DNA of 64,000 nt, the filler included, from Collodictyon triciliatum (taxonomy: Eukaryota): NCBI GenBank assembly GCA_043381765.1. It is 9 parts of 9 records of this genome, joined end to end, with 100 filler letters (N's around TTAATTAATTAA, not from the genome) between each part and the next. Parts side by side here need not be neighbours in the genome. Positions count along the whole stretch, not along the records: positions 7,141 to 14,178 come from JBHJMP010004092.1; positions 14,279 to 21,314 come from JBHJMP010004093.1; positions 21,415 to 28,447 come from JBHJMP010004094.1; positions 28,548 to 35,577 come from JBHJMP010004095.1; positions 35,678 to 42,706 come from JBHJMP010004096.1; positions 42,807 to 49,835 come from JBHJMP010004097.1; positions 49,936 to 56,962 come from JBHJMP010004098.1; 2 more parts are not named here. One strand, 5' to 3'. Numbering within the stretch: the stretch's first letter is position 1; every line of letters begins with the position of its first letter. Under the pieces are notes generated by a model. That model was not told the origin of the DNA. It worked only from the letters and a program-made list of their open reading frames with translations, and did not search any database. A program made the position numbers and the translations under genes. Positions 7,451-55,334 of this stretch are shown piece by piece.

Positions 7451-8695
7451 CTAGTCAGCTTCAGGACCCTTTTCATTTCCGGGTTGGTAAAACTTTTGAG
7501 CTTCGGTTGGTCTCTTCCGAGGCCTTCCAGGGTTCCTCTTGGGCGGCGGTCCATCACAGCCTTCAAAGGGGTCTGTCTGGGGAGCACTTCCAGTTGGCAA
7601 CCCCACACAATCAAGAGACTTCATGCCTGAAGGCATGGTTGAAATAGTAGGAAACCCATTCCCAGTAAGAGTATATCCCAACGCCGTTGACGAGGAGCCC
7701 ACTTCAACGGATGCACTTGAAGACATTCGTGACGGAGGTATGATATTACTGATAGAATTGATTATACTAGGAGATGACGAAAATGTAATGTTTGTTGTGT
7801 TGAACAGATTAGATGACTGTGCCGCAGATGAAATCCCTGCAAAATCACTCGCTCTTGTGAGATGTGCCGCTTGGTTTCCGTCTGATACAAAAGGTAGAGG
7901 AATACCAGAAACCGCCCCGGGAATATTTGATAGACTAGGCGCAGAAGACTGTGATTGGAGAAGAATAGGGGGGTTGGGATGGGAAAACAGTGCCTGAAAG
8001 CAGGATAGTTGCTCTCGGAGGAGTCTATTCTCTGCCAGTAGAGTGTTTACATGGGCCACAAGTTCCGATTGTGATTGAACAAGTTGACTATTTCTTTTTT
8101 CCAGGTCATTCACGTAGTATTTTTTACGTTGCCGAGACAAGTGTGCTGACTCGCGGTTCTTTATCAATCTGTTTTTTTTTGGTTTCATTTTCTCATTTCA
8201 GTGAGGCAATCTAGATTATCTGAACAAATTTTATGTGAAACGTTACATGATGAAGTTGTTACTGGCAATATCCGATACATCTACCTTCTCTGTTTTTTAT
8301 CCTCTGGAATCTTTGTGCCCTTTTCCTCTTTGAAGTTTCTTCTTTTGAATTATAAATAAATAGAATAAAAAGTCAATATCCTGCTTTTATTTAGGCTATA
8401 TATCATGATAGAATCTTTTCTATATTATGTGAGAGGTACGCACTTTGAATCGAATAAAGGAAAAAAACGTGAGAGGAATGCAGGACGACCTCAAGTAATG
8501 AAGAAGAAAAAAAGGAAAGGAAGAAAGCGCCCGTATTTAACCTTATTTACTAACTACAATCAAGTATTACCCCACAGGCGTTGAGGTTCCGTCTCCGTTT
8601 GGCATAATTGTGTCCGCCTCGTCAAAAGAATAGTTTCGGTCGTTTTCCTCCGAGTCAGGAGACGCAGACTCTTGTGCAGCCTTTTGATTATCCAT
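7451..8695 (-). CDS. bZIP transcription factor with C-terminal AT-hook (3 coding exons)
   Basis: MDNQK..TPVG | RNFKEEKGTKIPEDKKQRR | LIKNRESAHLSRQRKKYYVNDLEKRNSQL..L..V..L..ENRLLREQL gives basic region plus zipper. KRNPGRPRKR lies near the C-terminus. Confidence 0.88.
8443..8468 (+). mobile_element. ~25-bp dispersed element copy with 14-bp TSD-like flanks (bZIP intron)
   Basis: CTTTGAATCGAATAAAGGAAAAAAAC between GTGAGAGGTACGCA (8429-8442) and GTGAGAGGAATGCA (8469-8482). Confidence 0.8.
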
Positions 8696-9429
8696 CTATT
8701 ATAAAATGACCTAATATCATATTTTAGTGCTTGTAGTTTCATAATAAAGTGTATAGAAAGGAAAAAGGCTTTGCGACACAAAAAAAAAGCTCCTTTTTTG
8801 TTTTGTTTCAAGGGTGTCACCATGGAGTTTAAGTAAAGAGAAAAGGAGAGTATTCTAAACTAGCGATAACAGGAGAAGAGCCAGGGTGGAAACGAAAACT
8901 GCGATGGCGTTCACCTGAGTTTCTTTGGCCTGAAGACGAATATTACGGCGAGCTGCGAATTATTCATGTTTTAGACTAATCGATCTGTGTCCTGACGAAC
9001 AATCTCTCATGATTGTTTGTGGACTTAACCTCACACACACCCGGAAGTGGCTTGCGGCTAGTTTGTGAACGAAGGAAAGGAATCGGCCGCGCTTCCAGTT
9101 CGTTTGTTTGTTTATGGAGGGCAACGATCGTGTTTCTATTTCAGTATGTACAAATATGGTATGAGTGAATAGTTTGTTTGGCTTTTATTGTGGTTTTTTT
9201 TTTTATTCTAAAAGTCTTAGCTGTTGGGCCCGTCTCAACAATCTTTCATTCAACCATCAGGCAAGTAGTTCCAAAGTAGGTGGTGATGTTTTTATTGTGG
9301 GGGTTGGTGAAAAGTTCTCGGGGTTGTGGGGTGTACATTTCTCTGATATGACACAGAACTATCAGACACTTTAATACTAATATTTCGGGATAAAGATATT
9401 GCACTCACAACCTTACGGGAGAGATAGGT

Positions 9430-9500
9430 GAAGAACAAGAACAAGAACAAGAACAAGAACAAGAACAAGAACAAGAACAAGAACAAGAACAAGAACAAGA
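9430..9500. repeat. (AAGAAC)n microsatellite
   Basis: Read directly. Confidence 0.95.
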
Positions 9501-9542
9501 AAGAATAAACATCAACATGTATATGCATTACCGTGCGATTGA

Positions 9543-52900: not shown

Positions 52901-53064
52901 AGTTCCAACGGTGTAAATCGAAGATACTTGTGCCATACTGGAAATAATATGTCCGCAGATAATCATCCCTATTCAGAAATATTAATACTAAAGAAAATCA
53001 ATATATTACAATTTTATTGATTGAAACCTATCAGAATTCGCAGATGTGGAGAGCTTTTTGGCAT
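49936..53064 (-). CDS. Predicted secreted or surface protein: signal peptide + 21 WD40 repeats + Cys-rich ephrin-receptor-like (GCC2/GCC3) repeats; 3'-truncated
   Basis: Exon 53028-53064, 59-nt GT-AG intron (52969-53027), then a ~3-kb exon. N-terminus MPKSSPHLRILIGMIICGHIISSMA-QV. 21 GH..WN-type repeats, then CPTGSY/CPTGTY/CEEGTF/CDAGTF/CIAGFY/CPAGTF units. Confidence 0.88.
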
Positions 53065-55310
53065 TCTCTTGAGTTGATATTGTCTGAAATCTAAAAATGT
53101 ATGAAAAGATCATAAAACTTATTTCTTATTTACTACATTTTTATTTATTCTTAAATACAAAAAGTAATTGTTTAATTGATTTAAAATAAATGCAAATATT
53201 TGCAATTGATTCTTAGCCATGGTTTTTAATATCTATTTGGTCGAAATAACTCATATGAAATATTTATTGATTGCCTCGTTTACATTTAAAACAACATCAC
53301 TGCCTTTTTGATAAAGTTCTAAAATATTCTGATTTTCATATGCAACGACTGCATTTTCATACTAATAAACTTTAAATCTTTATGATAATCATTATGAAAT
53401 TCAAATTCTATAGTTTATTAAAATGCAAATGCATTACAAAAATATGTTTTTAAATATGACTTTTTTTAGTATAGCAGATTTATTTTACTATTTCCCGATT
53501 ATTGATTAAATAAATGATAAATTTGCGTATCAATAGTTTTGATATAATTCAAAGTGTGTAAAAGTACGATTGACAGCGCGTAAGTTTGAAAGAGAACGTT
53601 TAAAATCTATTCGTATATTTTTGCATAATTGAAGGTAATTATATCGAAACTAAGCTAAAATCCTTTCAATTTTAATATATCAACATGATATATGGACCAT
53701 TTCTTTACTTTTGGTATATATAGGAAGCAAAAATGAAAATCTGTCTAACAATAAATGCAAATTATTTAGATTAGCTCATATAACAAGATACCAAAAAGAA
53801 TATATTAAACATATCACAAGACGTTCACCATTTAAGATCATCAGGAACCTCAAATATATATATATGTTATTTAGTATTAAAAATTGATGGAATTAAATAG
53901 GATAATTAAAGATGAAGAAAAAAAATAATGGCCATAAAGAATAAAAGGTAAAAAGTAAAAATTCGTATCTAGTCAAAAGTTACATATTGATTTCACTGTT
54001 AAATATTCTTCAGTTATCATTCATCAACACTTCGTAGCGTTATAAGTCTCCATGAATTCTTTGAAAAAAATCATCTATTGACACATATAAAGTTTTTTGT
54101 AAAAAAATAAATTAATTTTCAATTATACCACGTATTGTAAATAAAAATTCCAATTAGAAATAATGTCAAAAAATGAGGTCGATACAAATCATTTGGCTTT
54201 TTTTAAGGTAGAAACCAAAATAAAATATGTATACACCATATCTTTGAAAGGAAGAATAAAAATAGAAACACAATATTCGACGATTCATTAGAAGTATCTC
54301 TTCAATCGATGACATGCAATTTTAGATCAAAGTGGTATACCACACCTATAGATATATGTAAACAAATAGAATTATAATTATTATTTAATTGAATGATAAA
54401 TTTATGTTATTCGTAACAAGAAATTTATTATTTATCCAAATTATGAATAAAATGGTTTACCGTGGAATTTTTTATCATTTAATTTGATTTTGCCCATATA
54501 TTACTTCTTTAAATTTTGATTTATAAAAAATAACAGTTAATCATGAAAATTAAATCAGGTATTATAAATATTACTTTATCTACAAATCTATATTTTTATA
54601 TTAATTGAATGATGGAAATTAAATCTATTTAAAATATTTTGATTGGTTTTTTTTCTCGGCATTCCAAAATACTGGGAGAACGAGAGATTCTGAGATTAAA
54701 AACAATAAATGGTTTGTTACATATCTTAATCGACTGGTATGTTTATAAGTCATGAAAATTCTAATGGGATAAATATAAAAAATTGAACAAAAATATTTGA
54801 AAGGATGATTAATTGAATTGCACGAATTTATGAATTTTTATCAAATAAATATTACCTAAATAATTAATTTCAAAAGATAATGACTTATTGATGTACAATA
54901 GGAGAATTCCTTTTATATGTTGAAGACGAATCATTTATGTTAACCATATTTATTAAATATGTAAATTGGAACACACATTTTGGTTTGCGAACTTTAAATA
55001 TCTCAATAAATGGCTGTAGAAGATTTAATCAAATAACTAATATATGCTTGAACTATCATTATTCATATATTTATGTAAAATGTAAATTATACTTAATCGA
55101 ATCGATTTGTTGATGATAGCATAATTAATCGTATATCGATCAAACAATCAGAGCTGTCAAACAAAGTCATATAATTAGATACGTGTACCGATTTAATAAT
55201 TGAATAAACCATGTTCTCTTGACTTTAATGAATGAATATCATGAGAAGCAAGTAAAATTATATCTCTCTAGAAAATGGATTACGAAATTTTCTGCTGTTA
55301 ATTAAGGCTG

Positions 55311-55334
55311 TTTTTTCCTTTATTCGATTCAAAG
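55311..55334 (-). mobile_element. ~25-bp element copy, intergenic, no recognisable TSD
   Basis: TTTTTTCCTTTATTCGATTCAAAG matches the consensus exactly. Confidence 0.65.

Follow-up and report, generated by a model that had tools for sequence, protein, structure and literature searches.

Copies of the micro-element and their surroundings

The stretch of DNA analysed here, hereafter the window, comprises 64 kb of the Collodictyon triciliatum assembly GCA_043381765.1 and consists of nine ~7-kb scaffolds joined by N44-TTAATTAATTAA-N44 linkers. It contains six copies of the short, A-tailed sequence CTTTGAATCGAATAAAGG-(A)4-11, one of them truncated, which lie on four of the nine scaffolds and are referred to as micro-elements c1, c2t (the truncated copy), c3, c4, c5 and c6. 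The 18-mer CTTTGAATCGAATAAAGG was matched with at most 2 mismatches at five positions in the window, namely 8443 and 16972 on the plus strand (the latter with 2 mismatches) and 34284, 34929 and 55317 on the minus strand. No match of this quality was present in any of 100 shuffles, and the chance expectation is none. Sub-motif scans of the window added the truncated copy (match at 16798, plus strand) and gave no seventh. An initial annotation of the window had reported a short sequence repeated on four unrelated scaffolds, and the five matches together with the truncated copy bear this out; the positions it listed for the three minus-strand copies (34280, 34923 and 55311) belong to real copies and correspond to their poly(A) ends.

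Five of the copies lie between direct repeats, which are treated here as target-site duplications (TSDs). Copy c1 (8443..8467, plus strand) consists of the 18-nt core and seven A residues and is enclosed by TSDs at 8429-8442 and 8469-8482 (14 bp, 2 mismatches). It is located ~250 bp upstream of a bZIP open reading frame (ORF; 7454-8197, minus strand) and is antisense to it. The truncated copy c2t (16801..16821, plus strand) is composed of the tail AATAAAGGGG and A11, with TSDs at 16787-16800 and 16822-16835 (14 bp, no mismatches). On the same strand, c3 (16972..16997) has a variant core that ends in AAGTGGG, followed by A6 and flanked by TSDs at 16956-16971 and 16998-17013 (16 bp, 2 mismatches). 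The remaining copies are on the minus strand: c4 (34280..34301) is the core with A4 and has TSDs at 34302-34320 and 34258-34276 (19 bp, 3 mismatches), with 3 nt separating the tail from the TSD; c5 (34922..34946) is the core with A7 and has TSDs at 34947-34963 and 34905-34921 (17 bp, 4 mismatches); and c6 (55311..55334) is the core with A6, the flanks of which form no direct repeat (mismatch at 13 of 16 positions).

Copies c4 and c5 are located in two introns of one gene, which encodes an SSN6/Cyc8-like protein with TPR and polyglutamine regions. Both are in sense orientation, c4 in the intron 34246-34562, ~35 nt from the 3' splice site, and c5 in the intron 34867-35143. A 577-nt contig from sequencing run X2 was ~99% identical to the window and skipped three GT..AG introns, two of which hold c4 and c5. 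Relative to the adjoining ORFs both orientations thus occur among the copies, as the initial annotation had stated, c1 being antisense and c4 and c5 being sense.

Two side observations concern the arrangement of the copies. The copies c2t and c3 and the copies c4 and c5 form same-orientation pairs, 170 and 640 bp apart (16787-17013 and 34258-34963), and this pairing was more clustered than random (P = 0.008 in a simulation of two such pairs among six random insertions). Furthermore, both c2t and c3 carry an extra G before the A-tail (GGGG and GTGGG), which suggests a source sub-variant or a local insertion preference.

Flanking direct repeats

The direct repeats, checked by coordinate, abut five of the six copies and are 14-19 bp long with 0-4 mismatches. 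The number of copies so flanked agrees with the initial annotation, the ranges it gave (14-17 bp, 0-2 mismatches) being too narrow. When the five TSD scores were compared with 30,000 unlinked flank pairs, P values of 9e-4, 1e-4, 3e-4, 1e-4 and 4e-3 were obtained, and the comparison with 20,000 linked positions outside low-complexity DNA gave P = 1e-3 to 8e-3. A further null based on random linked positions was discarded, as it was dominated by microsatellites (99th percentile = 18). Directly ahead of the TSDs the sequence was tt|aa, at|at, tt|at, at|gt and at|ct. Together, the variable A-tails and the significant TSDs of variable length support insertion by reverse transcription, which had been proposed from the start.

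The two members of the TSD pairs differed at 11 of 80 positions and the cores differed from their consensus at 2 of 101; 6 of 10 TSD differences, classified by eye, were transitions. The divergence of the TSDs is compatible with old insertions. A scan of the window for other A-tailed, TSD-flanked short inserts recovered only c2t, tandem repeats and WD40 repeats at a limit of at most one mismatch in 14, a limit outside which c1 and c3-c5 fall too.

The direct repeats also bear on the explanation that no retroposition is involved and that the sequence is either a host signal that has been conserved at several loci, for instance for polyadenylation or regulation, or an artefact of assembly or adapters. 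The sequence does contain AATAAA and its cores are better conserved than the flanks. Locus-specific direct repeats abutting five of six copies, however, speak against such an explanation, as do two copies within introns that are spliced out, the occurrence of both orientations relative to the adjoining ORFs, and the presence of the sequence in an independent metagenome contig (see below). We therefore consider this explanation highly improbable.

Relation to a LINE

To what the 18-nt tail belongs is indicated by a metagenome contig, L023 (1157 bp, 48.7% GC), which was the only true copy among 95 loci obtained in a metagenome scan with the 18-nt tail pattern. Read in the orientation of the element, L023 contains the C-terminus of ORF2 of a long interspersed nuclear element (LINE), including a zinc knuckle CX2CX8HX4C, and continues through a 3' untranslated region (UTR) of ~230 nt and the sequence ...CGCTACA into the exact 18-mer, A10 and an AT-rich flank. 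Over 510 nt, the contig shares 92.9% identity with the window at 24622-25128 (minus strand). The window region is part of a degenerate LINE fragment (24622-26113, minus strand) with the start of a reverse transcriptase (RT) domain, an internal gap, a zinc knuckle CX2CX8HX4C and a partial 3'UTR. A search for copies reaching 5' into a LINE, which the initial annotation had recommended, is therefore positive.

Among the other metagenome loci, L061 had CTTT upstream without an A-tail and looks like a chance match, and the upstream bases of the remaining 93 were unrelated. The pattern was also present at 1 locus in viral contigs and at 20 loci in genome contigs; none of these 21 loci had an A-tail and they look like chance or coding matches.

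In the LINE fragment of the window, the profile matches to RVT_1 (E 2e-4) and zf-RVT (E 4e-4) fell short of the curated cut-offs, and the fragment has no apurinic/apyrimidinic endonuclease (APE) part. A 62%-identical fragment, P0027, was above the cut-off for zf-RVT. Frameshifts or gaps disrupt both LINE copies, L023 and the window fragment. When 1.84 billion representative proteins were searched without a profile, with the ORF of L023 as the query, 14 matches were obtained. Four of its relatives are long (1226-1275 aa, 25-38% identity); Exo_endo_phos and RVT_1 were found in all four and zf-RVT in three. Judged from these predicted domains, the distant relatives have the architecture of L1-like, APE-type LINEs. 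A separate search for longer proteins with the L023 ORF found none, and a protein atlas returned only clusters without names. The initial annotation, which had noticed L1/Tx1-like fragments in the window, is supported in that a LINE with a zinc-knuckle ORF2 C-terminus is present there; its clade may be L1 or Tx1.

Because the 18-mer and A10 terminate the LINE in L023, the micro-element would correspond to the final 18 nt of a LINE together with its poly(A), and not to a free-standing sequence, as far as can be judged from this single contig. The stand-alone unit envisaged in the initial annotation is contradicted by the same contig. The odds that the tail came to lie by chance within ~300 nt downstream of the ORF2 stop and in the same orientation are ~0.2% (our own estimate, at ~1 LINE fragment per 64 kb).

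The 5' junctions

All five full copies begin at one and the same C, as had been noted at the outset, and the start of c2t is 7 nt further in. For endpoints distributed uniformly across 50 nt, the probability of finding five of six copies at one endpoint would be ~1e-6. Upstream of the common start, the full copies match the parent LINE by 0-3 nt at most. The dinucleotide CA, which is also present at this point of the parent, precedes three of the five full copies (binomial P = 0.0024, given a CA frequency of 0.064). The 18-mer itself is without CA, and the CA at the junction is the first one upstream of the tail. The junction of c2t is located at the only TCG of the tail, where the last 3 nt of the upstream TSD equal the parent sequence and form a 3-nt microhomology; the 5' junction of c3 is without microhomology. 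The CA microhomology suggests premature priming of the second strand.

A strong RT stop at the imperfect CTTT..AAAG palindrome had been put forward for the shared start and was not supported, as the predicted hairpin has a free energy (dG) of 0 to -0.3 kcal/mol and a stability no higher than that of 18-mer shuffles. The fold of the parent 3'UTR (last 231 nt) was no better than that of shuffles (z = -0.47). A search of the parent 3'UTR against Rfam identified no ribozyme, the top hit (E 0.12) being to an unrelated long non-coding RNA model, and ARAGORN found no tRNA-like fold in the parent.

Occurrence in other data sets

The runs X1-X4 were compared as assembled contigs, which cannot show RNA ends. 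No empty site was seen among them, the intronic flanks of c4 and c5 being outside their coverage. The share of the scaffold's words present in runs X1-X3 was 0.06-0.13. X1 and X2 contigs that stem from other loci match the window only over 34920-34948, which corresponds to c5. The summed depth at the bin of c5 was 175 (X1) and 86 (X2), compared with 5-14 for single-copy exons. At 34920 the matches have a loose end and at 34948 a joint, and from there they lead into unrelated sequence. This pile-up would fit the presence of many more copies in these data sets and does not amount to a count. One X2 contig (depth 39.5) with its joint at 34948 contains CA and the element, then 27 unrelated letters including AATAAA, and then an A/G-rich run; it may represent two tandem retro-insertions at another locus.

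A rival explanation is that the element is a true retroposon of minimal size. In that case a discrete RNA of ~20 nt plus poly(A) would be the template and would be mobilised in trans by the LINE protein, the fixed start being the 5' end of the RNA. Such an RNA could be derived by processing from the 3' part of the LINE transcript, or could come from the ends of host transcripts polyadenylated at resident copies. In favour of this explanation are the start of all five full copies at one base, including c3 and c6, which have no microhomology there, the lack of any 21-60 nt copy in the window, the finding that the element is the sole A-tailed, TSD-flanked short insert in the window scan (at most one mismatch in 14), and the heavy pile-up of X1 and X2 contigs on the element. 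The parent sequence ahead of the start, however, yielded no processing signal (no Rfam match with E < 0.1, no tRNA-like fold, z = -0.47), and a promoter cannot fit in an 18-nt unit. In addition, the CA at three of five junctions shows that the cDNA often extended 2 nt past the supposed start. On balance we regard a discrete template RNA as unlikely. Somewhat less likely still is that the last ~20 nt of the LINE plus poly(A) form a discrete RNA that serves as a minimal module for the LINE protein, an 18-nt 'nano-SINE' with hundreds of copies.

Other features of the window

The linkers occupy 7041-7140, 14179-14278, 21315-21414, 28448-28547, 35578-35677, 42707-42806, 49836-49935 and 56963-57062. 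Homopolymers or microsatellites were found at most scaffold ends. The scaffolds are separate, and adjacency across linkers is therefore meaningless. The DNA is eukaryotic and rich in AT (28-37% GC), with islands of higher GC content. GT..AG introns in the SSN6/Cyc8-like gene were seen from a spliced RNA contig.

Apart from the bZIP protein, further ORFs encode glutathione S-transferase (GST), a WD40 protein of 1030 aa, a fragment of an ammonium transporter and a fragment of an ESCO-type acetyltransferase. The top relatives of two window proteins were EukProt transcriptome entries with 74-78% identity, and the next-best relatives of the ammonium transporter were from dictyostelids (52-56% identity). 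Two tandem GST-like ORFs (21765-22508 and 23594-24391, minus strand) are located in a GC-rich island (47-52% GC) that adjoins the LINE fragment. The top relative, a transcriptome entry, was 74% identical and all others were at most 46% identical; relatives spanning nearly the whole protein were at most 34% identical, one of them named as bacterial. A further GC-rich region at 12887-14080 (~53% GC) contains long overlapping open frames on both strands with low-complexity Ala/Arg/Pro/Ser translations. The intron-less ORF at 49936-52972 (minus strand) exceeds 1000 aa, consists of ~20 near-identical WD40 repeats, extends past the end of its scaffold and is similar to the repeat arms found in NLR-like proteins. 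At 30453-30777 a tandem array is present with a unit of 12-14 nt (GGAATATAAAAA with variable A runs), on which the contigs of X1 and X2 again produced a high summed depth (66 and 47 per bin).

Discussion

The micro-elements combine an A-tail with TSDs that vary in length (14-19 bp) and with identity to the 3' terminus of a LINE. Our favoured explanation, to which we assign a probability of roughly 0.7, is that they arose by extreme 5' truncation from a poly(A)-type LINE whose architecture is L1-like and includes an APE, and that just the last 18-20 nt of its 3'UTR and the poly(A) were inserted. The mechanism would thus be ordinary LINE retroposition and it is the form that is unusually short and uniform. 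As envisaged, the LINE endonuclease would nick an AT-rich site, and the poly(A) of the LINE RNA, or of any transcript ending in the tail, would be primed at this nick. After the RT had copied ~20 nt, the nicked top strand would capture the nascent cDNA, often via the CA or TCG microhomology, and synthesis of the second strand would begin prematurely. The microhomologies of 2-3 nt at the junctions are what would be expected if the nicked top strand anneals to a very short cDNA. The sharp limit just after CA could reflect pausing or release of the RT, either on leaving its initiation mode or on losing its grip on the terminal motif, or it could be the 5' end of the template RNA. In a study on the structure of L1 target-primed reverse transcription (TPRT), the top strand is nicked during first-strand synthesis, and premature second-strand synthesis is proposed as the cause of 5' truncation (PMC7617806).

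Several observations weigh against truncation as the complete explanation, the first group of which concerns the uniformity of the copies. Both c3 and c6 end at the common base without any microhomology; microhomology capture alone does not set the limit, and some further limit on the cDNA or the template at 18-20 nt is therefore needed. No structure, ribozyme or tRNA-like fold in the parent accounts for a pause. Copies of intermediate length (21-1000 nt) are absent from the window; since short-read scaffolds break at repeats, copies of more than ~100 nt would escape notice here, which does not apply to copies of 21-60 nt. Likewise, the scattered 5' endpoints expected of a truncated LINE were not seen among the six copies on these short scaffolds. 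The initial annotation had held that a continuum of endpoints into an ordinary LINE would reduce the elements to plain truncated tails; instead, a single base is the endpoint of five of the six copies, and the sixth ends 7 nt further in. It also seems mildly odd that the cores are better kept than the TSD pairs.

The second group concerns the link between the tail and the LINE, which comes from one contig, L023. The LINE copy of the window loses its homology to L023 ~95 nt before the tail and has a mere 14/20 look-alike of it at ~24600-24620 (minus strand; P ~0.012 per 100 nt), which may be a diverged variant of the tail or a chance match. As a side observation, a G-C replaces the G.U pair of the small hairpin in this look-alike, with a dG of -1.6 kcal/mol. 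A LINE copy without the tail, and a LINE with the tail seen once only, would fit a micro-element that was independent of the LINE and had inserted beside, or been captured by, a LINE copy in L023. In that contig, however, the 18-mer follows directly after non-A sequence, in the orientation of the LINE and at the distance from the ORF2 stop expected of a 3' end. L023 has no significant flanking repeat, the top candidate by eye being 8 bp with 2 mismatches, and the estimated chance odds of ~0.2% also speak against a coincidental placement. Independence from the LINE thus appears very unlikely, though not to the degree of a host signal or artefact, and 5' truncation of a LINE is retained as the explanation of choice.

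The combination of a LINE-derived tail and a fixed length can be compared with several known systems. The 'suffix' of Drosophila is the 3' end of the F element, and the eel elements UnaL2 and UnaSINE1 share a 3' stem-loop tail. Tails of this kind are 60-270 nt long and have a recognisable structure or their own transcription. As in these cases, the short unit described here would be a LINE 3' end with a discrete 5' end that would be spread by the LINE machinery; in contrast, it measures 18 nt and its hairpin is negligible. The truncation points known for L1 are spread over kilobases, whereas five of the six endpoints found here are at one base, 18-20 nt from the tail. In other respects the 5'-truncated L1 insertions of human and mouse are similar, in that they share the poly(A), the variable TSDs of 14-19 bp, the AT-rich nick site and the 2-3-nt microhomologies at the 5' end (PMC7617806). 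The APE, RT and zinc-knuckle architecture is shared as well, here in the distant relatives. Short mRNA retropseudogenes of up to 300 bp have been identified by poly(A) and TSDs, and their authors propose that the RNA is truncated either prior to reverse transcription or in the course of it (Terai et al., 2010, PMC2831318). They resemble the micro-elements as very short retrocopies of RNA 3' ends that are recognised only by poly(A) and TSDs. The retropseudogenes derive from many mRNAs and vary in length, while a single LINE tail of a fixed length ~10x below that upper bound is involved here.

When measured against the definition of a short interspersed nuclear element (SINE), the micro-element shares its 3' tail with a partner LINE, since the whole unit is a LINE tail (L023). 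It fails the definition because it is without a head of the RNA polymerase III type: a tRNA, 7SL or 5S head with such a promoter is absent from the 18-nt unit, no Rfam family was found in the window, and the parent has no tRNA-like fold. A full-text literature search for a 14-nt part of the motif gave no match, and a literature search on abortive TPRT gave nothing relevant.

If the fixed length of 18-20 nt holds genome-wide, the copies would be a natural record of the earliest step of TPRT, a question that is now approached mainly in vitro. From them one could read at which point just after initiation the enzyme or the template fails, and in what way so short a cDNA is captured by the top strand. 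If a discrete template RNA of this size existed, improbable as we consider it, this would be notable, and a 'nano-SINE' of this kind would be by far the shortest self-propagating retroposon known. For the genome of the organism, the 25-bp inserts bring AATAAA into introns and gene flanks and are invisible to standard repeat annotation. In this AT-rich genome they could thus contribute small insertions that go unnoticed.

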